From a virus, in IMG/VR virus record IMGVR_UViG_3300013947_000002, positions 1-64,000 of that record: 64,000 nucleotides of DNA. The stretch is one strand, 5' to 3'. This document shows positions 3,044 through 62,855 of this stretch, one piece after another. The translations under genes and the position numbers were made by a program. Each line of letters starts with the position of its first letter. Position 1 is the stretch's first letter. The notes below the pieces were generated by a model. The model saw only the letters and a program-made list of their open reading frames with translations. It was not told where the DNA came from and did no database searches.

Positions 3044-5122
3044 TCATTCTTCAATTACTGGGCCAACAGTGAATTCACCTGTGCCCCCATTTTCATAAAA
3101 TATATTATGCACGTTGTCCCATAGCCCAACATTGCCCCACTTGTTACGATATGGAACATAATCCCTAATCAGCACACCATTATCCCATATTTTACATGAA
3201 TGTAGGAACGCCGCTATGGCTGGCTTCTGGAAATAGCCATCTTTGCTATAGGTTAATAGCGCCATATTATTCTTCATCTTAAATTCGCTTGCGTCATATT
3301 GCACAGATTGCCCATTGACAGCAAGCTGATTTTTATTCATATCAATGGTCATCTTAGCAAATGACGTGCCAACCGATATCGTCTGAGTGTTATCCTGATT
3401 ATAACCAAACGTGACCGTACCATTACTGTATGATACACCAAAATACGTATATGTATCATCTGCGGCTTGGTCTTCCTTCTCATTGGTATACAATGAGCCG
3501 AATAGATAGCCACTTGTATTATTCATTGGCGTTATCACCATCTGAACACGTGTATTATTATTTGGGATAAATCCGGTGCTAATAAGCTGGTTACCTGTAG
3601 ACATGATATACTGTAACTCAACTGGCTCAGATGTTCCGTCGACCAAATAATAAGGATACCAACTTGACGCTGATATGGTCATACTGTTTGCATCGCCATA
3701 TTGGGCATTATATGACTGTATCATATATTTCTTTTGATCGCCCTGTAATTTCATGGCATGACTCATGATGATATTGACATCGAGCCAAGGAATTGGTATA
3801 GTAGCCAATGAGATACCGTCATTGAGCCGACAACGCCAGTATAGCTCTAAATCGGCACGTTGCTTAGCTAGGTCGTTTGATGTGATATTATCGTATTCAC
3901 CACTATAGCATACATGTCTAATAATACCAACTGAGCTAGAACCAACAGGGTCACCTACATAGAAGGGACTGTCTGGATTATTATCATATGCTACAGCAGA
4001 TGCTTGATCATTTCCCAAATCAAGAAAAGTGCCGTTTGCTTGAAATTGAGAAACATAATATTTATCCTTTTCTAGCTTCTTTACACTAGACCCATCACTA
4101 TTAACAAGCTTGTATGTACCCAATACAGTAGACTCGGATTCGCTAGCCCCAGCCGTTATAGTCAAATAAACAGACCCCTCTACATTGCTAGGCGGCACAA
4201 ATCCAACCAATGTCCACTCTTGTAATGGTGAAGCGCCACTAACAGTTGGCGTTAATGACGGTATATGCAACGTGACGGTCGAGCCATCTACAGTTGTCTT
4301 ATCGCTAAAGTGGTCGATGTCATGACTGCGTCCATATACCTCTATATAGTTCTTGACATTCTCAAAATCAGTGCTTACTGATTCTTGAATAACAATATTT
4401 TGCCACACATCATCATCAATCAACACTGGGTCATTTGCTCCGGTTGGGATTGGCTCATAGTGAAATACGCCATCAACATCAAAATACATCTGATACTGAG
4501 GTAGGATAGCAAGTAACTCTTTGAGAATATCATATACTGTGCCACCCTGTGCTATCTCAATATCATATGGCACTTCCTGTATTGTGTCATCTACGTTCTT
4601 ACATTCACTGACAATATATTTGGTAAATCCACCCAATTCCAACGCGGCGATAATTGCCCCGCGCACATCTGAGCCAATAGGAATTTTTGTCGGTACGCCC
4701 GGTAATTCACCATTTCTCAGTCCTGTCAACTTGGCCATCAGGTCAAGTCCAGAAAATGACAAAGTGTAATTAGCGGCATCATACTGATAACTAGGTGCAT
4801 TGATTAGATATACGCCCTGATTGTACCATTGAATGTTCCTTGTTCGCATATTCTCGTAACCAATCCATGGGCGAATATATCTATCAAGAAAAATCTTACC
4901 ACCAGCCTTAATCTCAAATGAGCTGTCTGTAACAACTAAGCTACATTCACATGAACGTCGCAAATCAGCATTTGCATCAACCGCCACAGAGAAACCGATA
5001 AGATTACCACTTAGTTCATCTACGACGTTCATGTTGAAGTCCAATAGGTCGAGCTTAATATACTGCTTGATATATGATTGCCTAAGAATGTTATAATCGT
5101 CCTGTGTAATATTTAATGCCAT
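3044..5122 (-). CDS. large tail-tip / baseplate hub-type structural protein (Tal-like)
   Basis: 692 aa. Call rests on its position among tail genes and its size. No catalytic motif recognised. Confidence 0.45.
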   Translation of the reverse strand: MALNITQDDYNILRQSYIKQYIKLDLLDFNMNVVDELSGNLIGFSVAVDANADLRRSCECSLVVTDSSFEIKAGGKIFLDRYIRPWIGYENMRTRNIQWYNQGVYLINAPSYQYDAANYTLSFSGLDLMAKLTGLRNGELPGVPTKIPIGSDVRGAIIAALELGGFTKYIVSECKNVDDTIQEVPYDIEIAQGGTVYDILKELLAILPQYQMYFDVDGVFHYEPIPTGANDPVLIDDDVWQNIVIQESVSTDFENVKNYIEVYGRSHDIDHFSDKTTVDGSTVTLHIPSLTPTVSGASPLQEWTLVGFVPPSNVEGSVYLTITAGASESESTVLGTYKLVNSDGSSVKKLEKDKYYVSQFQANGTFLDLGNDQASAVAYDNNPDSPFYVGDPVGSSSVGIIRHVCYSGEYDNITSNDLAKQRADLELYWRCRLNDGISLATIPIPWLDVNIIMSHAMKLQGDQKKYMIQSYNAQYGDANSMTISASSWYPYYLVDGTSEPVELQYIMSTGNQLISTGFIPNNNTRVQMVITPMNNTSGYLFGSLYTNEKEDQAADDTYTYFGVSYSNGTVTFGYNQDNTQTISVGTSFAKMTIDMNKNQLAVNGQSVQYDASEFKMKNNMALLTYSKDGYFQKPAIAAFLHSCKIWDNGVLIRDYVPYRNKWGNVGLWDNVHNIFYENGGTGEFTVGPVIEE

Positions 5123-5125
5123 ATA

Positions 5126-6034
5126 TTAAGCCTCCGTTGGGATAAGCCCATTCATAAATAGATCGCTCTTGCTATCTGCCTTGCCTGTCTCTGTCCAGCT
5201 TGCACTAACATCGCACATACCCATGCCATAACTTGCGTCATAAGATACAGATGGATTACCAGTAACGCAAACAAGCCAAGAACCGCCATTCCAGTCCTTA
5301 ATAATCTTTGGCTTACCATTCGTCAAGAATTTGAGCAGAGTATTGCGCCTTGCTACAATTTCTTGTCTATCAATATTACCTGTTTCCTCAAAGTCGGCTG
5401 GTAGTACCTTGCCTTGAATTGAGCCAGTCTGATAATTCTGCAAGCCGTTACTAATAACAATAGGGAATTCGCGCCCATATGGAGTAAATACGCCTACTTG
5501 CCGCACTTGGTCATTATTGCCATATGCCACACCACAGTACATCTTATATACAGTATCCAAGTCGCAGATAAACACGCCCTTGAAATTAGTAGTAATCTGC
5601 TCGACCATATAGTCTCCCTCAACACCACTCATCATGAGCACATAGGCATATTGATAGTCGGTGAAGTTAAGCGCCAAGTTGTCAGTGAATGTGAACGCCA
5701 ATTCAGACAAGTCGTTAATCTCAGCCTCTTTAATCGTTGTCCACTCAAATTCACCAACTTTGCGCCTCTTGAGTCTATAACCCGTAATATCCTTGGTAAT
5801 CTGGTCGACATTACCAGCTGAGATATTACCGTCAAAGTTACAATCCATAATAGTCTCCCAATCCCAATCAGTGGGCTTTTCTGGACTGTATGGCTTTGTC
5901 ACGTTATTAGTCACATTGAAATGGTCATATATGCCATTCTCAATGCGCGTCTTAGTAATATGTGAGACGTTGGTAGGCATTGGGTCGATGGCATTCCTGT
6001 CCGAACAAAAATTATATCCTAATACAGCTATCAA
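5126..6034 (-). CDS. tail/baseplate structural protein
   Basis: 302-aa ORF that overlaps the upstream gene by 4 nt (6031-6034). Lies in the tail module. Confidence 0.45.
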   Translation of the reverse strand: MIAVLGYNFCSDRNAIDPMPTNVSHITKTRIENGIYDHFNVTNNVTKPYSPEKPTDWDWETIMDCNFDGNISAGNVDQITKDITGYRLKRRKVGEFEWTTIKEAEINDLSELAFTFTDNLALNFTDYQYAYVLMMSGVEGDYMVEQITTNFKGVFICDLDTVYKMYCGVAYGNNDQVRQVGVFTPYGREFPIVISNGLQNYQTGSIQGKVLPADFEETGNIDRQEIVARRNTLLKFLTNGKPKIIKDWNGGSWLVCVTGNPSVSYDASYGMGMCDVSASWTETGKADSKSDLFMNGLIPTEA

Positions 6035-7113
6035 ACAATCTCACCTCTATTCTCAATCTTTAAGTCATATACATTGTTGATGCGCCGATTCCAAATGAAT
6101 AGATATTCTGTGTCAGATGGTTTGGCTATCTTATTAGAGAAGATACCATAGTAATGTTCCCATTTTGGATGCTTGGCCACTAATTCTACCCACACATACT
6201 CATTCTCTTCGCGATATGTTAATGTGACAGTCGCGCCATCATCATTAGTGAATGTGAGAATTTTTGAGTTAGAATTAAAGTCGCGCCCCCATATACCCAT
6301 GGTATAATCACCAGCTATCTCGTAATTATCCTTCCATTCAACCCATGAACCGGACTCTCTAAGGTCAACCTCTTTATCGTCAATATATGTGGGAGGATAT
6401 GGATTAGAATCGCCCGCAATGCCAACCGTGTTATTCTCAATTGTAACATATCCATCATGGCAATTATTTGTCAGATACATGGTGGTATAGACGCGCGGCA
6501 CATAGTAAACGATGTATATGCTCGTCTTACCAGATTCTACGGCTGTGCCCTCTACAGTCTGCCCCACCACCTCAATCTGATAGGTAAGCCCATCCTCAAA
6601 ACCTGAAAATGTATATGCTATAACCGTAGGTACGGCCTGATTTTGTAGATATTTAGTGCCGCTTGTTGCCACTAGGCCACCCTGCGCGTCATATAAATTG
6701 AATTGATACTGTGCCAGTTGCTCAGATTCGGCCTGATTATACTGTGCCTCAAATTCAAATGAAGCATTGGGGATGTTATTGCTTGCGGGCATATTAGTGA
6801 ACGCTAAAGTAGGCTGAGTATAACAATAGAATAAAATTGGGTCTGACTCAACCGATATATTGCCCTGAGCGTCAATCGTTTGAATTGTCGCCTGATAGCG
6901 TGTACCATTGGTCAATGTATCAGCAGGTAATGTATGAATATAAGCAAACGTTGTAACTGTCTGTTTATATACCTGCTCTAGGGTTGCATTATTTTTTATT
7001 GTTAATATGTTGCCTGTGACCTGAGAGCCGCCTTGTGAATAAAATCTGAACTTCTGTTCCTTAGTCGCGTCAAATGCGGCTACAGGAAATAGGCTGGGTT
7101 TAGTAAGCGCCAT
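6031..7113 (-). CDS. tail/baseplate structural protein
   Basis: 360-aa ORF in the tail module with a beta-rich repetitive composition. Confidence 0.45.
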   Translation of the reverse strand: MALTKPSLFPVAAFDATKEQKFRFYSQGGSQVTGNILTIKNNATLEQVYKQTVTTFAYIHTLPADTLTNGTRYQATIQTIDAQGNISVESDPILFYCYTQPTLAFTNMPASNNIPNASFEFEAQYNQAESEQLAQYQFNLYDAQGGLVATSGTKYLQNQAVPTVIAYTFSGFEDGLTYQIEVVGQTVEGTAVESGKTSIYIVYYVPRVYTTMYLTNNCHDGYVTIENNTVGIAGDSNPYPPTYIDDKEVDLRESGSWVEWKDNYEIAGDYTMGIWGRDFNSNSKILTFTNDDGATVTLTYREENEYVWVELVAKHPKWEHYYGIFSNKIAKPSDTEYLFIWNRRINNVYDLKIENRGEIV

Positions 7114-11293: not shown

Positions 11294-14200
11294 TTAACTA
11301 CGTCTTGTCACATATTGCTGTGCCAGTTCTCTAAGTCCGCTTACGAACGACTGAGCGTCGCGCACATTAGGCAACATGACATTGCTAATATTGAGCGTCT
11401 GCGCCCAACTCTGTGCCTTCTGAGCCAAGGAGGTCAGCATATCGCTAGGTGTCATAGAACCCCAGCGCCATAGATTGTCCGTAATACCACTAGGTAAAAT
11501 GCCATCGCCTTGATTTAGAACTCTAAGCTCTGGGCCATTTTCGCCAACTAGAGATAACCCTTTATTGGCGCACCTTGTACCACGAGCATAACCCGTATAT
11601 CCAGCCTTGTGCATTTCTGAGGCGAGATTGAGAAAATATCCTTTAGACCTGTCAGATTGAGCTTTATTATATAATTCTTGAATTTCATCTTTTGTGATTG
11701 TGCCACGGAATATTTTATTATATAGCCTTTGGTCGCCAAAACCTTCCATGTCAACAGCAGTGACAGCATTGTATTGCGCCGCCGTTAAATCTGGATTTTC
11801 TTCTGTCCACTCATCCTCGGGTTCTACATAATGTTGCCGGTGAAATTCTTCTTTGCTAGTCCACCAGGCGTTACTTCCGGATTCATACGCTTCCTTATAT
11901 ATGTCCTCATTGGTCTTCCATGTATCCATTTGAGATACGTCTGTGCCAAAATATTTGGACGCTACTTCATCGCCATATGCATCGCGATAGTCCTGAATCA
12001 TATCGAGCTTTGCATTTCTAAGTTCTGTCCAATATTCAACTTCGGCTTGCGACTGAGCATTCTTTATCTTTTCGCCAAAGTCAGTGTCAACACCATAGTA
12101 CTTGAGATTCTCTTCGCGAATTTGCTTTTTTAGCTCTTCCTTACGAGCGCGTTTTTCTTCAAGAGCCGCTTCTTTAGCATTTTCAGCGGCAACAAGCTGT
12201 TCGTATGCCTCACCCGGCTTCATAGCCTCGCCAAATATATCATATAACTCACTATCAGACAAGCCCTCTAACACAGTTCCGCTCAGATTTTCTCTTAAAT
12301 AATCCATGAGGTGATCTTTAAGTACACCTTTATATCCACGTACTTTGCCACCTTCGCTGAAATATTCCTCAAAGAATGCGGATGACTCATTACTAACCAT
12401 AGTTAGAAGATCTTGAATCTGACTCTGCTCAATGTCTCGATACTTTTCTTGATAATCAGCTTGTGCGCTAGATATGGCATCGACATCTTGCATATATTGG
12501 AAACGACCTTCGCTATAGACAAGCATACGGCGCTGTTTGGCTCGCTCTAGTGCCTCTAACTTTTCTTCTAGGGCGATTTTATCCTCAAGCAACTGATTTT
12601 GACGGTTGTATTCGTCTGCTACTTCTTGAGCAACGTCCTTTTCAGCATCGGCATTTTTAATGGCGGCTTTTCGCGCTTTATCGTATCGCTCATTGATAGA
12701 ATCGCCGTATGCTCTAATCACGTCCCAAGCTGATTCGTATCCGCTAACAATGTCTTCGGCACTTAAATCACCACTTTTATAAGCTTCGCTAATTTCAACA
12801 CGATGCCCTGTAGCCGACTCCATTGCGACAACATTGAGCGTTTGAAGCTTTTTCTCTTGCTTGATCATCTGCTTCAGACTACTGGTAGCTTCGTCTACGC
12901 TACTTGAGACAGAGCTAAAACCGTCAGCCAGACTACTTGCCAGTTCGCTACTATCGCCCAATGCACTTTGCAATTTTTGATACAGCTCTTCAATGGTATA
13001 ATTACCCTTTTGAGCAATCTGATTAAACAAGTCTTCAAGCACCGCTAAGAATTGAGCAAATTCAGCCTCGGCAGCTTTATATTGTTCGCTTGTTTCATCA
13101 AATCCCTGTTGTTTGAGCTGGGATAGATAATCCTGATAGGACTGATATATAGTGGCTACTTCTGATAGGGTTGACTGTAAATCAGATTTACTAATGTCTG
13201 GGTCAATCAGCTTGAGACGGGTCGATTCATCGGTTAGATAATCGCGCAGTTCCTCAATGGTGTTGATGGTTTGGGCTTTGACTTCTTCTTGGTCGGATTT
13301 GGTCGAGGATGAACTGCCACCACCACCACCATAAGACGATGGGACAAAAGACGATATCTGCTCAAGTTGCTCTTGATATTTCTTTTGCTCTATTTGATAT
13401 TTCTCTTGTCCAGCCTTATAAGCATAGTCCTGCAACCATTTTTTATATGCTGCGGGGTCGCTTTCTACGCTCTTCTTATACTTTTCTTGATAGGTGCGAC
13501 GAAGATTTTTTGATAATTCTGTATCACTAATTCCAATTCCAACACCAGCAGCGGACATCATACTTGATATTTGAGAAGTCGTTATTGATGCCGCTTGACC
13601 GACTGAATATATTTGGTTAATTAGGTTTTGGAAGTTTGCTTGAGACTGCGCTTGTTGGGCTTGAATAAATGACTGTGCCATGTCTGCCATAGAGCCATTC
13701 GTCGACAAAGCATAACTGGCAGTATCGGTAAGTTGACCATTGGTATCAAATAACGATTTAACAAGATTCTCAGTTGCACCAGATGCTCCTGCTGTTGCAG
13801 CTTCATAATTCGCAAGTATGTTATTGTATTGCTCAAAAGCGCCCACTGATTCTTCTGCGGCTGTGCCTAGCTCTCGAATGTTCTGAGCTTGAGTCCCACC
13901 AATTTCAGCAATGGCTTCGTAGCCGTCTACAAACTTCTGTTGTGCTTCATTCAGCGTTTCAAGCCCAGTAAGGTATACATACTCAGCTTCATTAGCATTC
14001 ATATAGGCATCACGTTGCTCTAATACTGCATCTGATACCTCACCGGATTTACTTGCTGTTTCAGCCAAATCGAGCATGAGTTGTCCCTGAGTGGACTGAT
14101 ACTCAGACGCAGATACCGTGGTAGAATCAAATGTATAATGCAGAGCTTCAAGATTCTGTTTAAGGAAATCAATGGCTTTGGCAGCACGTTCACCATCATC

Positions 14201-15721
14201 GGTTAGCTCAGATAGTTCATCAATCTGCTCGCTTGTTAGAGTTACGCCCTCTTCTTCAGCAAGTTTGGTTACAGCTTCTGTAGTTGTCGAATATCTACCA
14301 ATTTCTTTTGATTCAGCGCCATATTTGCCTTGATAGTATCGTCCAACCGTAACACCAGATTCTCTGTCAGCGCTATATGCCGCAGCCCCTGCCTCATCAG
14401 CTTGCGCCTTTCTCGCACGTTCAAGCTGATTATAATATTCAATAAGCGTCTTAACCTCAGCTTGTTCATCACGCCACTGTTGGTCTCGGTCATCCTCTGG
14501 CACGGCGTTAAGGTCTTCTAGCTTTTGCTTTAGCTCTTCTAGCTTGTCTGCCGCGCCGTCTGCTTCTTCTTTAAGCGACTCATAGTTATTAACTAGATTC
14601 TCAAATTTTTTGGCTTCTTGGGCTTCTTCAAATGCCTTATACGCCTCTATACATCCGATAATAGCAGCTGAGATGGCAAGTATAATTGGCAGGGCTACAC
14701 TAGCTCCCCCACCAACTGCTTTAATCGCCTCGCCAAAAGTACGCGCTCCACTGGCCGCTAATTTAATAGCTTTGCCCAAGTTGGTAAACTGTTTGCCAAT
14801 GGTTTGCAAAATTTTACTCACATGAAACAAGCTCTCAATGCCCCAACTAGCACCGCCAAGTAATCCTACTTTAGTTACAAATTGACCAAAGTCTGTATTG
14901 GCAACCTTGAGCATTGTTTGACCGAGGTTCAAAAATCCGGTTATAACCTCTTTATCAATAACATTGTTTGCTAAATCTTGGAACTCAGCTTTAAGCTCTG
15001 AGGTTTGATATTCGAGTGAGGATTGATACGCTTCATTCTCGCGCATTGCCGAACCGGCGGAATTAAGCGCAGTTGCTGTTGCTTTAGCCGCTGTGTCGAA
15101 ATTTGAAAGAATAGCGGCCAAATTCTGCGACTGGTTAGCACCCGCTTGCTGATTCAGATAATACGCCTGTTCATTCTTTGTTAACGTCGGCCAAATTTCG
15201 GAAACGTCTGTTAATACATCGTATAGACTACGAAGTTGTCCCTCTTGGTCAAGAATCGCAATCCCATGCTCTTGGTACCATTCTGTTAACGCTTGTCCCG
15301 TAGACGACGATTCATCGATAACTTGGTTCAGGCGAGATTGCACAGACACAAGCGCGCGAGATACCTTGCTTGCATTTCGTGTCACCTCAACGCCCGCCGT
15401 CAGAAGACCAAGACTTTCTTCAAATGAATTGTTGCCAACCGCCAACGCCGAGGACATATTACCAAGATTCTTGGCTAATTGCCCAGATGACACAGCATAG
15501 GAGTTACTTACAGCGTTGACCGCATCGATGATATGCTCTGCGTCATCAGCCTCAATATTAAATGCCTTCATTTGGGCAATAATAAAGTCGGCTGATTCAC
15601 TTGCGCTTATTGCCTCATCGCTGACATTCTGGAATGTGGTAGCCACCTTTGCCAGCGTTGCTGAATCGCTATCATTAAAGCTATTTTTTCTGAAGCTTGT
15701 TGCAGCTTCAACCATTTCCGA
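11294..15721 (-). CDS. tail tape measure protein, exon 2
   Basis: About 1475 codons. The N-terminal part (...VEAATSFRKNSFND...QLAKNLGNMSSALAVGN...LLTAGVEVTR) looks like the conserved TMP core. Long coiled-coil body. The ATG at 15713-15715 has no convincing RBS, and the open frame extends only 3 codons upstream. Confidence 0.75.
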   Translation of the reverse strand, partial: SEMVEAATSFRKNSFNDSDSATLAKVATTFQNVSDEAISASESADFIIAQMKAFNIEADDAEHIIDAVNAVSNSYAVSSGQLAKNLGNMSSALAVGNNSFEESLGLLTAGVEVTRNASKVSRALVSVQSRLNQVIDESSSTGQALTEWYQEHGIAILDQEGQLRSLYDVLTDVSEIWPTLTKNEQAYYLNQQAGANQSQNLAAILSNFDTAAKATATALNSAGSAMRENEAYQSSLEYQTSELKAEFQDLANNVIDKEVITGFLNLGQTMLKVANTDFGQFVTKVGLLGGASWGIESLFHVSKILQTIGKQFTNLGKAIKLAASGARTFGEAIKAVGGGASVALPIILAISAAIIGCIEAYKAFEEAQEAKKFENLVNNYESLKEEADGAADKLEELKQKLEDLNAVPEDDRDQQWRDEQAEVKTLIEYYNQLERARKAQADEAGAAAYSADRESGVTVGRYYQGKYGAESKEIGRYSTTTEAVTKLAEEEGVTLTSEQIDELSELTDDGERAAKAIDFLKQNLEALHYTFDSTTVSASEYQSTQGQLMLDLAETASKSGEVSDAVLEQRDAYMNANEAEYVYLTGLETLNEAQQKFVDGYEAIAEIGGTQAQNIRELGTAAEESVGAFEQYNNILANYEAATAGASGATENLVKSLFDTNGQLTDTASYALSTNGSMADMAQSFIQAQQAQSQANFQNLINQIYSVGQAASITTSQISSMMSAAGVGIGISDTELSKNLRRTYQEKYKKSVESDPAAYKKWLQDYAYKAGQEKYQIEQKKYQEQLEQISSFVPSSYGGGGGSSSSTKSDQEEVKAQTINTIEELRDYLTDESTRLKLIDPDISKSDLQSTLSEVATIYQSYQDYLSQLKQQGFDETSEQYKAAEAEFAQFLAVLEDLFNQIAQKGNYTIEELYQKLQSALGDSSELASSLADGFSSVSSSVDEATSSLKQMIKQEKKLQTLNVVAMESATGHRVEISEAYKSGDLSAEDIVSGYESAWDVIRAYGDSINERYDKARKAAIKNADAEKDVAQEVADEYNRQNQLLEDKIALEEKLEALERAKQRRMLVYSEGRFQYMQDVDAISSAQADYQEKYRDIEQSQIQDLLTMVSNESSAFFEEYFSEGGKVRGYKGVLKDHLMDYLRENLSGTVLEGLSDSELYDIFGEAMKPGEAYEQLVAAENAKEAALEEKRARKEELKKQIREENLKYYGVDTDFGEKIKNAQSQAEVEYWTELRNAKLDMIQDYRDAYGDEVASKYFGTDVSQMDTWKTNEDIYKEAYESGSNAWWTSKEEFHRQHYVEPEDEWTEENPDLTAAQYNAVTAVDMEGFGDQRLYNKIFRGTITKDEIQELYNKAQSDRSKGYFLNLASEMHKAGYTGYARGTRCANKGLSLVGENGPELRVLNQGDGILPSGITDNLWRWGSMTPSDMLTSLAQKAQSWAQTLNISNVMLPNVRDAQSFVSGLRELAQQYVTRRS

Positions 15722-15731
15722 CGGTTATAAA

Positions 15732-15950
15732 TTATCTAATATATCCCCAATCATTATCATATTTATCTTGGGCTTTTACTTGTGCTATATCACGCCGTTT
15801 TTCTTCTTCATCTTGTTTGCGCTCTTCCGGCGTTCTATCGCCCGGCTTTGCATATCTTGGCACACAACATTTATATGTAAACCAACAGAAGAAGATGAGC
15901 CAAATAATAATAGCAAATGTGTATACGTCCTCCATTACAATCTCCCCCAT
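15732..15950 (-). CDS. small single-pass membrane protein encoded inside the TMP intron
   Basis: 72 aa with TM helix FAIIIWLIFFCWF followed by a highly charged tail. Overlaps the upstream small ORF by 16 nt. Confidence 0.55.
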   Translation of the reverse strand: MGEIVMEDVYTFAIIIWLIFFCWFTYKCCVPRYAKPGDRTPEERKQDEEEKRRDIAQVKAQDKYDNDWGYIR

Positions 15951-16141
15951 GTATCATCCTTGGTTGTTTCAACTTCTACCGTATTATCATCGACAGATTC
16001 AGACGCATCATTATTGTCACTGTTAAATAATCGCCTGAACAGACAAGAAATTGGCTGAAATAAAGCCTGTAGAATAATGATAGCAAGCCAACCAAGACAA
16101 TAAATAGTGCCGCAAAAAATAACGATAGACATTGTAATCAT
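15935..16141 (-). CDS. small membrane protein encoded inside the TMP intron
   Basis: 68 aa with an N-terminal hydrophobic segment (SIVIFCGTIYCLGWLAIIILQALF) and an acidic tail. A GAAGAGG RBS-like sequence lies upstream. Confidence 0.55.
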   Translation of the reverse strand: MITMSIVIFCGTIYCLGWLAIIILQALFQPISCLFRRLFNSDNNDASESVDDNTVEVETTKDDTWGRL

Positions 16142-16174
16142 GCTAGATACCTCTTCTCTCTATCAAGTATCTAT

Positions 16175-16203
16175 ACCATAGCATATATCAGATAATTTGT
16201 CAA
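16175..16203 (-). promoter_or_regulatory. sigma-70-like promoter inside the TMP intron
   Basis: The minus strand reads TTGACA-17 nt-TATGGT, about 30 nt upstream of the first intronic small ORF. Confidence 0.45.
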
Positions 16204-16550
16204 GGGGTTTTCAATCCCTTCCTGAATAATTCTTCACCCTATATATTTTGGAGGGCCGCCCTGTATATTCGATTGACACATCCCTCATCAGGACTTCGTG
16301 CCCAATCTGCCCTTTTGTCACGAATTTTATACATTATTCGTGACAGATTCTTTAGAGCTTTTACCCATGGAATCATCCTTATCGTCTTTCTGCTTTCGCA
16401 CAAATTCATTGTAAATAATGAATAATTCACACTCAGGCATATCTCATCCTCATGTTGTAGTGATAAGGCTCTTGAGGCTTTCAAGGGTTTAGGGGCTGTT
16501 CTCTATGCCGCTTTTCCATCGCGACATACCGGCTCAGACCGATTTGGTTT

Positions 16551-16949
16551 ACCGGTGCGGCCAACTGTTTGACCGATTTTGGTTAATTTGTCTACATAAT
16601 TGTCAAGTTCAGAGCCAGACAGCTCGGAGACTTTGCGAAACTCTGTAAGTGCATCATCAAGTTCATAGACCTGACCAACCATACTTCTAATGACATCTGA
16701 GAATTTACTAAATACCTCATTTGCCACGTTGAACGTCATTTGCAGGTCTTCACCAGAATCGTTGAGCCGCTTAGTAGCATCGGTCGCCTCATTGGCGTTC
16801 TTAGCTACCTTGTCTAGTCCATCTGCTCCAACCTTGAAGTTGATTTGCATATCCTTGCTATTTTGGATTTGCTTTAATTGCTTCTTTATACTCTCTTCTT
16901 GAAGCTGAACATCGACCAGAATCGAGTAGTTTGAGTTACTTCCAGCCAT
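16551..16949 (-). CDS. tail tape measure protein, exon 1
   Basis: ORF 16503-16949. Its N-terminus (..DALTEFRKVSELSGSELDNYVDKLTKIGQTVGRTG) is TMP-like. The read-through tail (KPNRSEPVCRDGKAA*) is taken to be intronic. Confidence 0.7.
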
Positions 16950-16952
16950 TCA

Positions 16953-17459
16953 TCACACTCCCTTTTTTATTTGTGAGTAGGCTATAAGAATAGACTCTGC
17001 GATATCATCATCATTGAGCCTACTTTTTGGCTTCACCCATCTTAGATTAAGCCCAAATTTTTCGTTAGCCGTCAGTACGGCCTTCTCCTTCATCGCATCT
17101 CGCTTTGTGCCCATCTTTGAGCCATCAAACAAGCCAATATCGCTGCGCCATTGAGACGGTAATAGGAAATGAACCGGCACATTATAATGTGTGGCAATAC
17201 TAAGGATATATCCCTGTACCGCCCCAAGCAACACAAGTGTCTGCATCTGCTTGCCAATCAAAGGAACGTCTTCAATGTAAATACAGAATGGCCTATATTG
17301 CTTGATAATCGCCTCAATTTCTTTACCCTCTTCTTCAAGTCGCTCACGCCAATGCAGGTCTTTTGATGGCTTGACCGCGCCATGATAAATAAGCTTATCA
17401 TCTTCAAAAACGGCAATTCCAGTACAGGTTGAAGATGCATCTATCCCCATATATCTCAT
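16953..17459 (-). CDS. RuvC-like Holliday junction resolvase
   Basis: Motifs 'MGIDASSTCTGIAV', 'IYIEDV' and 'DDDIAESILIA' match the RuvC-fold acidic residue pattern. 168 aa. Confidence 0.7.
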   Translation of the reverse strand: MRYMGIDASSTCTGIAVFEDDKLIYHGAVKPSKDLHWRERLEEEGKEIEAIIKQYRPFCIYIEDVPLIGKQMQTLVLLGAVQGYILSIATHYNVPVHFLLPSQWRSDIGLFDGSKMGTKRDAMKEKAVLTANEKFGLNLRWVKPKSRLNDDDIAESILIAYSQIKKGV

Positions 17460-19697: not shown

Positions 19698-20149
19698 CTA
19701 TTATATTTTATACCAAAAAAAATGGCATGAAATATTTTGTATTCATATTGGGTCGCAACGCCAATATCGACTTACTATCACTAGCAGTCTGCTCATGTTT
19801 TCACATGAGAGTAGAATATATGTTCACCCTATTTAATAGGGGTCGGATTTTTCCTCCTCCATACGCTTGAGGTTCTACTTCTCCCACAAGGAGATATTCG
19901 TTGAAAGTTTCCCATGTATATTATATCATATTACTATAAATATGTCAATATATTTAGGGATTTCTCTGCTAAACACCCATTTTTATCGGCATAGACTATT
20001 TAGGATTTGACCATGTAGTCATCCCACAACTTTTTTCTACTTTCGCAACCATTCAGCTTGTCGTTTCCAACTACTGTTTAGGTGTGTGGGCTTTAGGGAT
20101 TCAAAGCATTTAACCCGAAGTCATACGCTGATTACTCAACGTAGAGAGC
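19698..20149 (-). mobile_element. ORF-less group I intron in the major tail gene (boundaries +/- ~8 nt)
   Basis: About 450 nt with no ORF. It shares near-identical blocks with the MCP intron: 19968-19980, 20000-20014 and 20090-20114 match 25877-25891, 25900-25914 and 25996-26020. Confidence 0.65.
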
Positions 20150-20291
20150 AATTATTACCCTTACCACCGCGAATTTCTTCGCTAGAAATAGTGAAACCAA
20201 AGGTTGATTCGGTCAAAGTCTTAGCGAAGCCAATGATATTCTGACCTTTTAGGAGAATAGCATCGCCAACGCCAGCTAGGAATTTTCTCAT
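20150..20291 (-). CDS. major tail protein, exon 1
   Basis: Hand translation from ATG 20289-20291 (AGGAGG RBS) gives MRKFLAGVGDAILLKGQNIIGFAKTLTESTFGFTISSEEIRGGKGNN, then runs into a stop at 20136. Below the 60-aa track cutoff. Confidence 0.65.
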
Positions 20292-30799: not shown

Positions 30800-30938
30800 C
30801 CTCCTTTCTTTGTTTTATATTTTTGAGTGTTTTTATTTTCGGCTTTTGATTAAGTCTAGTTGGAACTTGGATTTCACTAAACCCTAATAGCGCCTCCACA
30901 ACAACATACCAACATAGCCGTTGCTTCATAGGTAAATA

Positions 30939-33639: not shown

Positions 33640-34441
33640 CGGCCAGCCCACACAGAGCCAGCCGTTCGTTTATTTCATTTATTCAGTTGTCAAGGTTCAT
33701 ACTGTGATACCCTATCGCTAGGGGCATACGGCGTTTCGCCTTTAGTTGAACAACAGTTCCCATTGAGTTGGGCTTATTGTAGATATGAGGCCGTAGCCTC
33801 CGTCACCTCCTTTCGTCAATTATGCTTCGGATAAACCAGTGGATAATTCAAGAGAAAGTGACCTCCCTTCGGATATTCATAGCCGCCAATGAGTAGTAGC
33901 GACAGGCAGTTTCAGTATGTGCCTAGATACAAGCATTTCGTCAAAGCTCTTACTTGTCAAGCGCCATCAAGCATCTAGCGCTACTCACTGTTATGTTTTA
34001 ATCACGGCTAAGACTCGCTTGGTGTTACCGCCAATTTGGTCTTATTTAATCCCTCATCCCATGCACACGGGAACCGCAGTGCGCCTCATCTTATTTCACC
34101 CACGCATGGCGCTATGTTGGGAAATATGGTGCAATGGGTCTTAGATGTCTGCTCATCTCGCCTTTGCCTACTTATAGCAGAATCACCTGATATTTCTTTG
34201 CCGCATATCAGAAGCGTTTTTGAATATACGGTTTTCATCGTTGCCTTATGGTATACCGCAAACCTTCGATAAGCGTCCACATATCACTCATAGGCAACCG
34301 AGCCATATGCTTCATACGTTCGTATAACACACCTGTTGCTATACGCCTATCATCAAGGATAGGATTTTCGATACTATATTGACGTAGCCCGCCACAGCCA
34401 ACGTCATGCTCGTATTAGGCTCCACTGAATTGTGGATTCAC
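33640..34441 (-). ncRNA. candidate ~0.8-kb structured ncRNA or long leader of the packaging/late operon
   Basis: No credible ORF on either strand. A consensus promoter lies at its 5' end. Contains tetraloop hairpins (33787-33800 GAGGC-UACG-GCCUC; 33710-33723 CCCUA-GCGA-UAGGG). G+C is well above that of other spacers. Confidence 0.5.
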
Positions 34442-41509: not shown

Positions 41510-41722
41510 ATGCCACGAACAAAGAAAATTAACCCGCGCGTCCAATATGGCGACACTAGCTGGATTGTCAATGATTGCGGCAATGGGCAATTCGAGCTGT
41601 ATAATACCAGCACCAAACAAATTCCAGCAAAGAGTAATAATCCACTGGATTTTGATAAATATATTGACAAAATTTTTGGTAAGGAGGCGGCTAAGAATGT
41701 TCGAGATTTTCAAGCTGAATAA
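41510..41722 (+). CDS. hypothetical small early protein
   Basis: 70 aa with a GAGGTGA RBS. First ORF after the early promoter. Confidence 0.6.
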   Translation: MPRTKKINPRVQYGDTSWIVNDCGNGQFELYNTSTKQIPAKSNNPLDFDKYIDKIFGKEAAKNVRDFQAE

Positions 41723-42857
41723 GAAGAAGAAAGAGCTTGAAGGGCAGATTTCCAAATTAGAATCAACTATTGCAGAGCAACAAGAGAATATTTCTTACAC
41801 ACAGCTCAACATCGATATGTTGCACAAAGAAGAAAAGAAAGCACAATCTGCCGCGCTTCAAGAACAGAACAACTTAGATATTCTTGAAAACAAAATCCAC
41901 GCTATCGAAGAAATGCAGGATTATAACATCCCATATTATCAGGATTCGCTTGATGAACTTGAACATCGCCGCTATGAACTACAGAGCAAGATTGAATTGG
42001 CTGTGAATACTGGTCTGTATCGCATCGAACAAGGATATACGCTCAATGGCTCTGACAGGCGCGGCAAGGAAATGCAGGACGTATATGGGCGAGGACTGGT
42101 TTGCAGTTGCAACGCTTATATTGACAGCAAAGAAAAATCGCTGACAACAGGCAATATTGCTAAAAGCAAAGAATTGATTAAGAATAAATTTAATTCTTAT
42201 CAGTCCAAAGCCGGTAAGGTCGGCTTGGCGCTTAATGCTGAATATGTCAAGGCGCGACTTGATATGTTTGATGTCAATTTGGCCATCAAGGTTAAAAAGA
42301 AGGAAGAAGCAGCTAAGATTAGAGAAGAAAAGCGGCGGCTTAGAGAGCAAGAGCAATTGTTGGCTGATATTGCTAGAGAACGCGCCAAGCTGATTGAAGA
42401 AAAGAAAGCAATGAATATTGCATTTAGCAAGGCATTGACAGATGATGAGCGCAATGAGATTAAGGCTCAGCTTGCTAGTATTGATAAGCGACTTGATTCT
42501 ATTGCATATCGTGAAGCACATAGTAAAGCTGGTTGGCTATATGTTATTAGCTCGCCCAGCTTGCCCGGATTGACCAAAATCGGTTGCACGCGGAGATTGG
42601 TACCAATGGTGCGCGTGAAAGAATTATCAAGTTCCTCGCTCCCGTCACCATTTGTAGCTCATTGCTTTGTATTTAGTGATGATTGCTTTGAGCTTGAATC
42701 GCAGATGCACAAATATTTTGACAAAGAGCGAGTCAATCCTGATAGAGAATTTTTCCGCATTGAGCCGAAAGAGGCCATTGAGGTGCTAAGAGAAATTTTT
42801 GACGTTGATGTCCATTTTGTAGATGAAGATTGTGAAGATAATGAGGAGGATAAATAA
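41697..42857 (+). CDS. DUF4041-like coiled-coil protein with C-terminal T5orf172 (GIY-YIG-related) domain
   Basis: Start at ATG 41697 with an AAGGAGG RBS; the track's longer N-terminus is rejected. C-terminus: 'GWLYVISSPSLPGLTKIGCTRRLVPMVRVKELSSSSLPSPF...LESQMHKYFDKERVNPDREFFRI'. Confidence 0.65.
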   Translation: MFEIFKLNKKKKELEGQISKLESTIAEQQENISYTQLNIDMLHKEEKKAQSAALQEQNNLDILENKIHAIEEMQDYNIPYYQDSLDELEHRRYELQSKIELAVNTGLYRIEQGYTLNGSDRRGKEMQDVYGRGLVCSCNAYIDSKEKSLTTGNIAKSKELIKNKFNSYQSKAGKVGLALNAEYVKARLDMFDVNLAIKVKKKEEAAKIREEKRRLREQEQLLADIARERAKLIEEKKAMNIAFSKALTDDERNEIKAQLASIDKRLDSIAYREAHSKAGWLYVISSPSLPGLTKIGCTRRLVPMVRVKELSSSSLPSPFVAHCFVFSDDCFELESQMHKYFDKERVNPDREFFRIEPKEAIEVLREIFDVDVHFVDEDCEDNEEDK

Positions 42858-51533: not shown

Positions 51534-51562
51534 TTGACAAATGAAATCAAATATGCTATATA
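51534..51562 (+). promoter_or_regulatory. sigma-70 promoter
   Basis: TTGACA-17 nt-TATATA, running into a (TA)8 tract. Confidence 0.55.
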
Positions 51563-51603
51563 TATATATATACGAGCCACAGATTTGGAGAGGAGAAACG
51601 AAA

Positions 51604-52371
51604 ATGAAAAATGAGATTCGATATATCATTGCAGGAATTGGATTGGCTGTAATTGGATTTACTGCTTGTGGCGCATTTGTCTATCAGCAAATCAATGAAT
51701 ATAATGCCATGATGGATGAACGAGCCGCAAAATCAAAGCCGGTATCCTATTCAATTAAATGTGTGCCGATTGATGTACAAGAGCCGGTTGGCGCAACTGA
51801 AATCGAATATCTGCCATCCGATGATGATGATATAGGTATAGTCGAGATGGAGACTGTAGTCACCGAGGTTGAGCCTGAGCCTGAGCAGCAGATTGAAGAA
51901 TCAGAATCGGATTATGTCTATGTGCCGCCATTTCATTTGACAGAATACGAGACATGGTTTGTTGAATGTGTGGTAGCTGGTGAGGCTGCTGGTGAGCCGT
52001 ATAAGGGTAAACTGGCCGTTGCTCAGTGCTATTTTGACGCAATGCTGAAGGACGGCTTGTCAGCCACAGAAGTAAAATCGGCATATGGATATAGTGGCTG
52101 GAATGAAAATCTGGATAAGCAAGACCCCAAAGCATATGATGAGGTTAAAAATGCTGTAGCCGATGTGTTCTATGGCGGCAAATTTGTAACTGATAAACCG
52201 ATTTTATATTTCTATGCACCCGCATATGGTCGTAGTGATTGGCATGAAGCTCAGGAATATTGGAAAAGTATTGCTAACCATAAGTTCTTTTACCTTGCTG
52301 AAGATGTAAATGCAGAATGGACAAATATCCTCTTGACAAATGTAAATGAATATGATATGATTGAGCCGTGA
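51604..52371 (+). CDS. membrane-anchored SleB/CwlJ-like cell-wall hydrolase
   Basis: Start at ATG 51604 (GGAGAGGAG RBS). TM helix 'IIAGIGLAVIGFTACGAFV'. 'VVAGEAAGEPYKGKLAVAQC' resembles the Hydrolase_2 core. Confidence 0.55.
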   Translation: MKNEIRYIIAGIGLAVIGFTACGAFVYQQINEYNAMMDERAAKSKPVSYSIKCVPIDVQEPVGATEIEYLPSDDDDIGIVEMETVVTEVEPEPEQQIEESESDYVYVPPFHLTEYETWFVECVVAGEAAGEPYKGKLAVAQCYFDAMLKDGLSATEVKSAYGYSGWNENLDKQDPKAYDEVKNAVADVFYGGKFVTDKPILYFYAPAYGRSDWHEAQEYWKSIANHKFFYLAEDVNAEWTNILLTNVNEYDMIEP

Positions 52372-57827: not shown

Positions 57828-58830
57828 TGTAAAGATGATGGTGCTACGAAGCCCACAGAGGACACTATCCATGGAGTGCCGAGCTGGGGAATACAGGAGC
57901 AGTAGTAAATGGAGTGAGATGAACAGCCATCATTATATGCCATATGAGGTCTTGAATGCGAATGAGCCAATGGCTGAAATTGCTCATCCAGATTTGGAGT
58001 AGTATTCAAGATATAACCTTAGCATTGCTCGTGCGAGAGGCAAGCCAAGCTAACTGCATATCCTACGTGGAATGTCTGTCTTGGATGGAAAAGAGCGAAT
58101 TAGGGAACGTGCGTGAGATAAATGAGAGAAGCATAAAAGCGGGTCACAGTCGTGTGAAAGACCGTAATGCCAAGTAGGGCGCACCAGTCAATCTGTTCGG
58201 CATAATAAAGGGATTGGGGTTGACGATTATAGAATGGCACATCGGAAAGACGATGATAATATCCGACCGGATTTGAAGATAACCGTCAAATCTATATCAC
58301 GCCTGCACTGGGGTCTGCGCAGAGTTTGAGAAGCGGCAGATACAGACTAGAGAATTGGGGTCGCGCCCAATCGTGCCACGTTAGCATCCATGCAAAAACG
58401 TAACGTCGAAGGTGATATAAGGATGTTATGTAAACAGCATTCACGAGCCGATGCTAGAAGTAGCTATGAGGTAGGAAGTCGGCTTGAGATTGAATATGGA
58501 AGTGTAAGCTAACTGGATAAACCTCGCCAATTTGGTGAGATTGCAAGTTCGATTCTTGTCACTTCTATTCCCCCACATCCATCACGCTTCTGTTTAGCAT
58601 TGCAAGCGTACCACGATGGATGTATAGAAAAGTCTAAAATCCTAGCTTTGTAAGGCTGAACACAAGAATTGGTCACTTGTGAACGGTCTAGTTTATAAGT
58701 TATAATGCTAGTTGCCGAATAGTTGAAAGCTGACCACCTGACGCTATGAGGCAGCGCTCGCCACACTCCCGATTTTAAGATGGTTGCGCAACTGTAAATT
58801 CAATTTAGCCTGAATTTGTAAGGAGTGTGG
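57828..58830 (+). ncRNA. candidate ~1-kb highly structured ncRNA (GOLLD/ROOL-like class or novel)
   Basis: No credible ORF. Long-range helices: 57834-41/57927-34; 58576-83/58615-22 with a nested ACGCTT/AAGCGT; 58761-69/58822-30. Contains an embedded tRNA-shaped module. Preceded by a strong promoter. Confidence 0.55.
58498..58567 (+). other. degenerate tRNA-like module (possible attP core or RNA domain)
   Basis: Acceptor GGAAGTG/CACTTCT (7 bp). T arm GCAAG-TTCGATT-CTTGT. Anticodon-like stem CTCGC/GTGAG. No D stem, no U33 and no CCA. Confidence 0.4.
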
Positions 58831-59256: not shown

Positions 59257-59285
59257 TTGACAAATCGCCGCTGTGGTGCTATACT
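59257..59285 (+). promoter_or_regulatory. sigma-70 promoter
   Basis: TTGACA-17 nt-TATACT. Confidence 0.65.
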
Positions 59286-59314
59286 TAAACCATCAAATAA
59301 AGGAGCTGAATGAT

Positions 59315-60151
59315 ATGAACGAACTATTTATTATGTCGCTTAAAGCAAAGCATCGTAGTGAGGGTACCATTCGCGAATATACCAAGGCGATCGAGAACTG
59401 CTTGTCGTATGTCAAGAAGCCTGAAACCGACATCAAGCCGATTGACCTTGAGTTGTGGCAGTCCAGCATGAGCAATCTTAGCTCTGCATCCGTAGCACAG
59501 CGCACATCGGCTGTTCGCGAGTATTTCAAGTTCTTGTATCGCAATGAATTTATCAGTCGCAATCCTGCTGATATGCTTGAAGCGCCGAGTATCAAGAATC
59601 GTGAGCAGTCGGCTCTTGATGGAGAGCAGGTCAGAGCGATGATTAACGCCGCAACAAATCTGCGTAACAAGGCGATTATTACGATGCTGGCTCAGACCGG
59701 TCTTCGCATCCATGAGCTTGCCAATATCACGCTTGAGCAGTATCAGAGCCGCAATGGTAATGTGTTGGTCATTCGTGGTAAGGGTGATAAGGATAGGCTG
59801 GTTGGCCTGGCTGATGAGACGATCAAGCTGATTGATAGCTATATTGCTAATGAGCGCAAAGACGGCTGCGAATACCTGTTCGTCGGCAATCGCGGCAATA
59901 AGATGGACGGCAAGAACACCAGTGCTATGCTCAAGGTGTGCGCTAAGAAGGCTGGTATTGAGAATTGGGAGGAGTTGCATATCAGCAATCATACGATGCG
60001 CCGCACGTTTGCTACGATGATGTCCGAAGCCGACGTACCTATTGAGATAATTAGTAAGGCAATGGGGCACTCAGGTTTGGCTATCACGTCCAGATACATC
60101 AAGCGCACCGAGCAGAGAGCGGTCAATGCTATGGCTGTTATGAGTTTTTAA
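59315..60151 (+). CDS. tyrosine recombinase (Xer/integrase family)
   Basis: ATG 59315 (AAAGGAG RBS). Catalytic pattern 'TGLRIHEL', 'HTMRRTFAT' and 'GHSGLAITSRYI' (R..H..R..H..Y). Confidence 0.8.
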   Translation: MNELFIMSLKAKHRSEGTIREYTKAIENCLSYVKKPETDIKPIDLELWQSSMSNLSSASVAQRTSAVREYFKFLYRNEFISRNPADMLEAPSIKNREQSALDGEQVRAMINAATNLRNKAIITMLAQTGLRIHELANITLEQYQSRNGNVLVIRGKGDKDRLVGLADETIKLIDSYIANERKDGCEYLFVGNRGNKMDGKNTSAMLKVCAKKAGIENWEELHISNHTMRRTFATMMSEADVPIEIISKAMGHSGLAITSRYIKRTEQRAVNAMAVMSF

Positions 60152-62228: not shown

Positions 62229-62855
62229 ATTAAGAAATTTGGTAAAGAACATCCTAATTTTAAGGGGAATGAGTGGCGTATCGATGGTAATGTTGCAATC
62301 GGTATAGATGCTAGAGGGAATGAATTTTTGATTGATATCGCAGACATGGACGCTGTGAGTTATCATAGATGGAGTGGGCGAGATAAATCATCAAGACGTG
62401 CTTTGGGTGGCATTTATTTTACTGCTAGAATGTCGCGTACAGCACCTACTGGCAACAAAATTAAAATGTTGCAGAATTTTATATGGGAGATACATAATGG
62501 TGAAATTCCTGATGGATATATGGTTGATCATATAAATATGAAGCCCTATGATAACCGCTATTCTAATTTGCGCCTAGCCAATAAGAGTGTCAACGCTTTT
62601 AATGCACAGCGCATAAACAAAGTAAGCAATTGTGGTATTGTAGGCGTTATGAAGGTCAAAGATAATACTAAATATAAAGCTGGTCAATACCGCGCGTATA
62701 TTTCATACGGTGGTAAACGACATGAATTAGGATATTATAAAAATATAGAAGACGCAATTATCGAACGGCTCAAAGCAGAGCTTGAGCATTTTGGAGAAAT
62801 TTGTCCAAATAATAGAGAGTTATATAAAGAGTATGAGGATAGAGTGAATGGTTAA
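62229..62855 (+). CDS. free-standing HNH + AP2-domain homing endonuclease
   Basis: 'VDHINMKPYDNRYSNLRLANKSVN' (HNH) and 'GVMKV...YRAYISYGGKRHELGYYKNIEDAI' (AP2). The conserved-looking N-terminus (WRIDGNVAIGIDARGNEFLID) lies upstream of the track TTG start. An ATT at 62229 lies 9 nt after AAGGAGA. Confidence 0.7.
   Translation: MKKFGKEHPNFKGNEWRIDGNVAIGIDARGNEFLIDIADMDAVSYHRWSGRDKSSRRALGGIYFTARMSRTAPTGNKIKMLQNFIWEIHNGEIPDGYMVDHINMKPYDNRYSNLRLANKSVNAFNAQRINKVSNCGIVGVMKVKDNTKYKAGQYRAYISYGGKRHELGYYKNIEDAIIERLKAELEHFGEICPNNRELYKEYEDRVNG

Follow-up and report, generated by a model that had tools for sequence, protein, structure and literature searches.

Group I introns of bacteria and phages are normally viewed as selfish elements whose sole passenger is a homing endonuclease. 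The IMG/VR virus record IMGVR_UViG_3300013947_000002, of which we analysed positions 1 to 64,000 (a stretch of 64,000 nucleotides (nt), hereafter called the window), raises the question of what such an intron might be doing with a different passenger. After codon 133 its tape-measure gene contains an insert of 829 nt (16550..15722, minus strand), in which the first-pass annotation had noticed a promoter and two small membrane-protein genes where an endonuclease would be expected. Our answer, to which we assign a probability of roughly 0.78 as an explanation of the whole, is that the insert is a group I intron with a predicted promoter-driven, gated membrane-protein cargo. By comparison of related sequences, the intron, the promoter, the gating hairpin, the closing helix and the membrane-protein genes appear to be one unit that is kept together, and the intron seems to act as a carrier for an accessory gene cassette. 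The genome is that of a siphophage of roughly 96 kb, whose relatives infect Enterocloster and occur in gut metagenomes. All genes in the tape-measure part of the window lie on the minus strand, and intron position i corresponds to window position 16551 - i.

Exon 1 of the tape-measure gene (16551..16949, minus strand; 133 codons), delimited from the list of open reading frames (ORFs) and by alignment to Enterocloster phage PMBT24, ends ...GRTG with U as its last base, and exon 2 (11294..15721, minus strand) runs from SEMVEAATSF... to the stop codon. At the junction, exon 1 ends ...ACC GGU at 16551, the insert ends with a G at 15722, and exon 2 begins UCG GAA AUG from 15721; the predicted spliced sequence is GGCCGCACCGGU joined to UCGGAAAUGG (also given as GGCCGCACCGGU joined to UCGGAAAUGGUU). 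The joined protein, ...GQTVGRTG/SEMVEAATSF..., aligned with the intact tape-measure protein of PMBT24 (1,508 amino acids (aa)) with no gap at the junction and was a single tblastn piece in five related Enterocloster phages, and Pfam family PF10145 covered residues 121-324 of it, crossing the junction. Alleles without the intron (loci L079 and L081) read ...RTGSEMV... unbroken, although they are rare at this site: 2 versus 58 with the intron in IMG/VR, by the patterns that we used. The 829-nt extent that the first-pass annotation had given for the insert was borne out, in that its removal restored the gap-free match.

One might suppose instead that nothing is spliced, and that the tape measure is made as two polypeptides with an ordinary moron between their genes. 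Rfam recognized no group I intron here, and gene callers give two ORFs, one of 148 aa (16949..16503) and one of 1,473 aa (15715..11294), as this supposition would have it. We regard it as highly improbable, for the break falls inside the conserved PF10145 region and is colinear to the base with intact homologues, and inspection of the sequence upstream of the ATG at 15715 found no Shine-Dalgarno element. Moreover, the 350 nt after exon 1 are more conserved as DNA than the exons are (87% vs ~78%), and they show covariation at the RNA level, some of it in pairs that exon 1 forms with the insert. The 148-aa ORF extends 15 codons beyond exon 1 into the intron (KPNRSEPVCRDGKAA), and these read-through residues vary among the relatives together with a covarying helix, P2, of the intron RNA. 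Taken over the 5' 415 nt of the intron, conservation is ~87% at the DNA level, compared with ~78% for the flanking exon, the protein identity of exon 1 being ~52%.

The comparisons rest on a survey of relatives. A search with exon 1 returned 12 IMG/VR loci, every one of them interrupted at the same codon, and a degenerate DNA pattern taken from the conserved core returned 58 IMG/VR loci, in all of which (58/58) the intron occupies the same tape-measure codon. Together with three loci fetched by other routes (L011, L016 and L019), these gave 44 distinct intron variants, 584-1,066 nt long. A promoter and one to three small, mostly hydrophobic ORFs were present in all 44, and an endonuclease was encoded in the tape-measure cargo intron of none (0/44). 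Megablast of the region, and tblastn of two of the cargo types, gave no match among the INPHARED phages.

Because Rfam gave no family of any kind on the insert, either at the gathering score or at expectation values (E) of 10 or less, the case for an intron was built from anatomy and comparison. At the 5' end, an internal guide sequence (16528..16538, minus strand) consists of UCUGA, the P10 guide, followed by GCCGGU, the 3' strand of P1. The end of exon 1, ACCGGU, pairs with GCCGGU at intron positions 18-23, which places U(-1)·G18 at the cleavage site, and the UCUGA just 5' of the P1 guide pairs with UCGGA of exon 2 (UCAGA in relatives). Exon and guide change together, to ACUGGU/GCCAGU in L031 and to AGCGGU/GCCGC in L067, and one of the P1 exon-guide pairs is C-G in 27 variants, U-A in 2 and G-C in 1. 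The ribozyme core (P2-P9; 16202..16527, minus strand), defined by covariation among 30 variants, comprises P2 (16527-16505), P3 (16496-16493 with 16261-16258), P6 (16300-16277), P7 (16270-16266 with 16228-16224), P8 (16256-16236) and P9 (16220-16202), all on the minus strand, and in our model P4 and P5 are accompanied by a P5 extension of three helices. The ribozyme ends with P9, at intron position 349, so that the catalytic core is confined to the 5' 350 nt of the intron. The 3' tail, AUAACCG (15722..15728, minus strand), has a CC that can pair with the GG of J7/9 to form P9.0 and closes with the terminal G, which is present in 43 of the 44 variants.

By reading of the core sequence we identified R-like (CAAUCGAAUAUACAGGGC) and S-like (GAAGAAUUAUUC) elements, and these, along with the order P7-J7/3-P3'-P8-J8/7-P7'-P9, agree with the Rfam alignment of the homologous intron of L011. 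Segment order and R- and S-like sequences match those of a canonical group I core. The structure was tested by scoring a model of 65 pairs (P1, P2, P3, P4, P5, the three P5-extension helices and P6-P9, with P3 and P7 crossing as a pseudoknot) on an alignment of 30 variants (A3), the controls being partners slid by 1-3 columns and 500 shuffles. Standard pairs filled 96.0% of the cells, compared with 31-45% for the slid partners; the covariation score was 0.33, compared with 0.03-0.06; changes on both sides were seen in 31 of the 65 pairs; and none of the 500 shuffles reached the observed values. P3 showed compensatory change at three of its four pairs. P7 has an invariant G-C and an invariant A-U, its third pair is A-U in 20 variants, G-C in 6 and C-G in 3, and the helix occurs in four compensating forms (GAAUA/UAUUC, GAGUA/UACUC, GAACA/UGUUC and GACUA/UAGUC). 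P8 and P9 also covary, and P5, the P5-extension helices and P6 are supported by the same 30 variants. We conclude that the insert is, by its predicted fold, a real but divergent group I intron, with splicing predicted. Colinearity, the P1, P10 and terminal-G signals, and covariation that includes the P3/P7 pseudoknot all favour the earlier suggestion that an intron of this type splits the tape-measure gene.

Several other pairings were tried and set aside. P4 as CCCUU/AAGGG (intron positions 64-68 with 237-241) fails in L011 and L025 and leaves 9 nt between P4' and P6; the alternative to it, P5 as GCCU/GGGC, was preferred on a compensatory change from G-C to A-U in L025. P7 as UGUCAA/UUGACA (273-278 with 348-353) was rejected in favour of GAAUA/UAUUC, which covaries and lies in the canonical position, and AUCGGU (positions 7-12, with U-A at the splice site) was rejected as the P1 partner, as the covariation in L031 tracks positions 18-23. 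A group II intron was excluded by the size of the insert and by the lack of any Rfam match.

Beyond the core lie the cargo genes. ORF1 (15935..16141, minus strand) encodes 68 aa, with one transmembrane helix (residues 6-24; Kyte-Doolittle 19-residue maximum 2.55) and an acidic tail, ...KDDTWGRL. ORF2 (15732..15935, minus strand) encodes 67 aa from its second ATG, or 72 aa from 15950, with a helix at residues 7-25 (maximum 2.04) and a charged tail, ...DKYDNDWGYIR. The second ATG overlaps the stop codon of ORF1 as UAAUG and has GGGGGAG six nt upstream, and ORF2 homologues that stand behind other first ORFs start at the same MEDVY/MENVY site. The first-pass annotation had listed ORFs of 68 and 72 aa. 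Both are present as frames (16141..15935 and 15950..15732), but for the second the downstream start at 15935, and with it the shorter product, is on sequence grounds most likely, and the two genes are predicted to be translationally coupled. From the flanking charges, both proteins would have an N-out/C-in topology. AlphaFold2, run for ORF2 on an alignment of nine sequences, gave two helices only, at a mean predicted local distance difference test score (pLDDT) of 65.6: one over residues 2-24 (pLDDT 80-87) and, after a linker, one of low confidence over residues 36-63. Searches of ORF1 and ORF2 against Pfam, PHROGs, PADLOC and NCBIfam returned no nuclease, holin, defence or other family above noise. 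The single hydrophobic helix and charged tail attributed to each protein in the first-pass annotation, and its remark that neither has a nuclease motif, agree with these results.

The homologues of ORF1 include 93%-identical as well as more distant ones. Ratios of nonsynonymous to synonymous change (pN/pS) were 0.36 for cargo type A (ORF1, compared with L045), 0.50 for type B (ORF2) and 0.39 for type C; the tail motifs are invariant as protein while their codons carry synonymous changes, and AAAGGAGG-type sites precede each cargo ORF. These features point to purifying selection on the cargo ORFs, and supply the coding signature whose absence had been named as grounds for giving up the proposal. 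A profile of six cargo proteins, searched against ENA, Logan, JGI and NCBI assemblies, found 182 clusters of cargo protein (at 90% identity; 62-84 aa) from gut metagenomes, with the ORFs intact. No Pfam domain or meaningful name was found among the 182, and every cluster that was looked up lay inside the tape-measure gene, between exon 1 and the remainder.

A survey of related introns for the same cargo, which had also been proposed, found small ORFs in 44/44 variants. The cargo is modular: types A and B occur together in the window and in its 97%-identical relative, and elsewhere we found C with B, C alone or D alone, and several small hydrophobic types that are unrelated; L036 and L043 have three cargo genes each. 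Only one cargo ORF is present in 33 of the variants. At least one ORF that is preceded by a Shine-Dalgarno sequence and has a hydropathy maximum of at least 1.6 occurs in 40 of the 44, and the other four, which reach 1.55, are borderline. A C-terminal D-x-W-G motif is common to many of the cargo types. In L053, intron positions 701-817 hold a truncated type-B gene (38 aa) behind an intact first gene, which shows that decay can strike one cargo gene and spare the first.

The promoter-like element upstream of ORF1 (16175..16203, minus strand) reads TTGACA-17-TATGGT and has a TG extension of the -10; it scored 10/12, plus TG, in a consensus scan. Although this places it among the three best matches in 9 kb, the match by itself carries no significance (32 lax matches versus 20.9 expected), and what makes the predicted promoter persuasive is its conservation across the variants. 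The -35 is TTGACA in 41 variants and TTGACT in 3; a spacer of 16-18 nt, TAnnnT and TG are found in all 44; and the -10 keeps T1, A2 and T6 while its middle positions and the flanks drift. Even the most divergent classes, whose flanks are unrelated, have TTGACA-17-TATAAT (L011) or TTGACA-16-TATAAT (the L022 class). We take the element to be a putative promoter of the host sigma-70/sigmaA type. The element noted at 16175-16203 in the first-pass annotation was found with a TG in addition, and the possibility raised there, that the ORFs would prove not to be conserved, did not materialize: the type of cargo, like the promoter, is kept in 44/44 variants.

Downstream of the promoter, a predicted hairpin (16139..16180, minus strand) pairs the -10/start region (UAUG...UAGAUACUU) with the Shine-Dalgarno sequence and AUG of ORF1 (AGGUAUCUA.CAUG). 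RNAfold gave it -9.6 kcal/mol (z = -2.2), with the Shine-Dalgarno sequence and the ORF1 AUG buried, whereas an RNA that begins 7 nt past the -10 lacks the 5' arm of the hairpin and folds at -1.6 kcal/mol. Comparable hairpins of other sequence, down to -14.5 kcal/mol (z = -5.5), occur in most variant classes; the classes of L011, L035, L040 and L025 have none. Every variant of the tape-measure intron has, 19-40 nt beyond its promoter, a strong Shine-Dalgarno sequence with a conserved ORF.

The cargo is further enclosed by a long-range helix. Its 5' arm (16183..16198, minus strand; inverted repeat I1) lies in the promoter spacer and its 3' arm (15729..15744, minus strand) takes in the stop codon of ORF2 and the four codons before it. 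This closing helix has 16 base pairs (bp), is 94% complementary with a G·U as its sole mismatch, and encloses a loop of ~440 nt that holds the cargo, after which only AUAACCG precedes exon 2. A helix of 11-16 bp between the promoter region and the 3' tail of the intron occurs in all variants, with differing sequences and with an offset to the -35 that ranges from -10 to +5 nt. It had been suggested that the second ORF overlaps the 3' intron core. Overlap with structured RNA does occur, but the structure concerned is the arm of a peripheral helix (15744..15729) only, and not the core.

These observations bear on a more sceptical account, in which the ORFs are chance frames in an AT-rich loop and the 'promoter' is kept only as part of RNA helices. 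The -35 and the spacer do overlap P9 and the closing helix, and the cargo proteins are short and belong to no known family. The closing helix, however, includes neither the -10 nor the TG, so that RNA pairing fails to explain their conservation, and yet the positions critical for sigma-70 are kept in them in 44/44 variants, while the closing helix itself shifts from -10 to +5 nt relative to the -35. The intact ORFs of the 182 clusters, pN/pS values below 1, synonymous-only variation over the tail motifs and the upstream AAAGGAGG-type sites likewise speak against chance frames, and we consider this account very improbable.

For the group I intron with gated cargo, the parts suggest the following course of events. 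On the long late transcript the closing helix and the hairpin would form and the cargo would remain untranslated, while the ribozyme would fold and splice itself out, to yield full-length tape-measure protein. Transcripts from the internal promoter would lack the 5' arms of both structures, and the two small proteins would be made from them; such transcripts could not splice, and might arise from a prophage or in the early stage of an infection. As predicted from these structures, the cassette seems to be gated so as not to disturb splicing. The proteins would insert N-out/C-in, with their D-x-W-G tails in contact with a cytoplasmic or membrane-proximal partner, and selection on the cargo, rather than homing, would keep the intron in place. 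As the intron is without an endonuclease, what retains it is probably the cargo, or else co-conversion with the endonuclease introns that lie 24 nt away in some relatives. A tyrosine recombinase gene (XerC/D-like, 292 aa; 59273..60151, plus strand) leaves a temperate or plasmid-prophage lifestyle open.

Some of what we observed weighs against this interpretation. P4 has only ~3 bp, and its register differs between the class of the window and L011/L025; the P5 region is a non-standard three-helix junction, and the intron could not be assigned to a group I subgroup; and at the cleavage site 4 of the 30 variants have G-C, C-G or another pair in place of U·G. On this copy (15500-16800) Rfam RF00028, whose gathering score is 50, gave no match even at E <= 10. 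On the side of the cassette, no terminator-like site was found after ORF2 on the minus strand, and the cassette is to that extent not a complete moron; the insert in the tube gene, described below, has a perfect promoter and no ORF, so that intron promoters here may serve downstream transcription instead or also; and the cargo proteins match no known family, their function being assigned by analogy only.

With regard to the cleavage site, the pair is G-C in L011 and L035, C-G in L024 and C·A in the L022 class (A3 columns 11 and 29), and these non-U·G pairings are kept by covariation with synonymous change in the Gly codon. Group I introns seldom have G-C or C-G at the splice site. The failed match to RF00028 is a limit of detection and not a defining property of the group I class. 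In a local search, the homologous intron at the same site in L011, which has P6-P8 sequence in common with the window intron and a standard GACUA/UAGUC P7, scored 31.5 bits (E 3.5e-6) with the same model, and other tape-measure introns of the relatives, as a positive control, scored 66-84 bits.

The missing terminator and the tube-gene insert have also to be considered in connection with another possibility, namely that the internal promoter mainly restarts transcription for distal tail genes and that the small ORFs are secondary passengers. With no terminator after ORF2, transcripts would run into the tail genes, and in T4 promoters of downstream genes are embedded in mobile endonuclease genes and favour the retention of these (PMC2988022). 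The promoter in the tape-measure intron is nevertheless always followed by the strong Shine-Dalgarno sequence and by an ORF under apparent purifying selection, and the hairpin over the ribosome-binding site (RBS) is built around the start site of the promoter. We therefore think it quite unlikely that restarting is the main role. The operon and cargo roles are mutually compatible, and the promoter may also feed the downstream tail genes.

What the cargo proteins do is a separate matter. By analogy, they could serve in superinfection exclusion, blocking the entry of DNA from related phages, and we offer this role tentatively, as the one that we would put first. It is likewise possible, and likewise doubtful, that the cargo is real but acts as a lysis-timing pair (holin/antiholin-like), as an addiction membrane toxin or as a membrane anti-defence factor. 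A small protein with a single membrane pass and a charged tail could as well be a holin or a type I toxin as an exclusion protein, and the coupled gene pairs (A with B, C with B) suggest two interacting partners. Type I toxin mRNAs typically mask the RBS by 5' structure, and the masking predicted here resembles theirs. Against a lysis cassette, the sole candidate for a cell-wall hydrolase was found ~35 kb away on the other strand (51541..52371); the cargo genes stand inside the tape-measure gene and not beside an endolysin, and no holin family was matched. The single ORF of 33/44 variants argues against an obligatory two-component system, and no conserved antisense promoter was identified, although this was not rigorously tested.

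The closest parallels to the regulatory design are the introns of T4 td, nrdB and nrdD, which have an internal promoter and an RBS-masking hairpin; the hairpin is confined to read-through transcripts, RNA from the intron promoter having its start within the hairpin, and splicing suffers when the hairpin is lost (PMC2988022). The window intron resembles them in that it interrupts a phage protein gene, carries its cargo in a peripheral loop, has an intron-internal promoter, and has a hairpin predicted to mask the RBS only on transcripts from upstream, which would keep ribosomes off the folding ribozyme. It differs in that the cargo is one to three small membrane proteins and not a nuclease, in that its promoter has a host-type consensus (TTGACA/TAnnnT plus TG) and not that of T4 middle or late promoters, and in that its RNA is too divergent for RF00028 and none of its 44 variants has an endonuclease.

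By position and by type of protein, the nearest analogue of the cargo is the gp15 moron of HK97, a small inner-membrane protein which is encoded under its own promoter in the tail operon, beside the tape-measure gene, and which prevents DNA of related phages from entering, an effect that depends on the tail of the incoming phage (PMC3594210). Both systems have a small membrane-protein gene with its own promoter at the tape-measure gene. The gene for gp15, however, is intergenic, is followed by a terminator and is expressed from the prophage, and gp15 is a member of the YebO family, whereas the window cassette lies inside an intron in the tape-measure gene, is without a terminator and has no sequence similarity to gp15, so that a shared function can be proposed by analogy only.

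As for introns at such sites, tail and tape-measure genes of phages are known to be interrupted by group I introns, those of cluster J mycobacteriophages being one example (PMC3706429). The canonical tail introns of the relatives L011, L016 and L019 are like the window intron in interrupting the tape-measure or another tail gene, and unlike it in reaching 66-84 bits with RF00028 and in carrying ORFs of 256-269 aa of the Vsr/EDxHD type. Group I introns with genes other than endonucleases include a fungal mitochondrial rnl intron that encodes rps3 and the IStrons of Clostridioides. These too host a gene other than one for a homing endonuclease, but they are organellar or linked to a transposase, and have no promoter of their own that drives a fast-evolving family of phage membrane proteins.

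Tail-gene group I introns, T4 intron promoters with RBS hairpins, and membrane-protein morons beside the tape measure are, then, already known, whereas a group I intron whose cargo is a moron or encodes membrane proteins was not found described in the part of the literature that the search covered. The novelty lies in the cargo and not in the promoter; the anatomy is well supported, and the function is suggested by analogy. If the cargo benefits the phage, for instance by excluding rivals, the intron would be a clear example of a vehicle by which accessory ('moron') genes are housed within an essential late gene. Phage genomes, densely packed as they are, would then have a further, new way of gaining genes, and the persistence of endonuclease-free introns would have a new explanation. 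A still broader proposal is that this intron lineage gave up homing and became a portable expression module, with swappable, fast-evolving membrane proteins that exclude rivals, possibly by interfering with tape-measure-mediated DNA entry, and with selection on the cargo fixing the intron at one codon; in this full form we judge it unlikely. Gene callers cut the tape-measure gene in two at such introns, and, because the group I model of Rfam misses the class, they are probably under-counted.

Other insertions were seen in the same gene. Introns accumulate in the tape-measure gene of the relatives, a hot spot that has up to four of them. Downstream of the cargo intron, at distances of 24 nt and of a few dozen codons, stand canonical introns that score 66-84 bits with RF00028; the neighbouring inserts are at 3290-4344 in L019, at 3463-4618 in L016 and at 4969-6040, 6239-6526 and 7606-7921 in L011. 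Several of these canonical introns encode the 256-269 aa ORFs mentioned above, which have an E-x-D-G-x-x-H motif (Vsr/EDxHD endonuclease type). The arrangement in L019 was also considered as one intron with both small ORFs and a 269-aa endonuclease, and this was rejected: there are two separate introns, 24 nt apart. A further insert lies inside exon 1 in L025, L052, L057, L058, L065 and L078. Directly upstream of the tape-measure gene is a gene for a RuvC-like resolvase (16953-17459, minus strand), at a position usually occupied by tail chaperone genes; PMBT24 and the metagenomic relatives have the same arrangement.

The tube (major tail) gene of the window is interrupted as well (19699-20156, minus strand), by a probable group I intron. 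The reading of tube exon 1 stops at ...EEIRGGKG, near 20157, and is taken up again by exon 2 near 19698; the two are colinear with the uninterrupted protein of PMBT24. With RF00028 the insert scored 30.6 bits (E 1.1e-5), below the gathering score; it has a perfect TTGACA-17-TATAAT promoter with TG (19948..19920) and no ORF of at least 30 aa on its minus strand.

Elsewhere in the window, Rfam reported a tRNA at 58498-58567 (plus strand; 30.9 bits, just above the gathering score), while ARAGORN found no tRNA in the window. A free-standing HNH endonuclease (62328-62855) and a T5orf172-domain protein (41547-42857) are both encoded on the plus strand. The drum RNA motif (RF02958) occurs twice on the minus strand, at 30822-30934 (51.5 bits) and 34224-34320 (43.3 bits), both matches being at or above the gathering score, and the first of them lies in a short gap just downstream of the large terminase gene.

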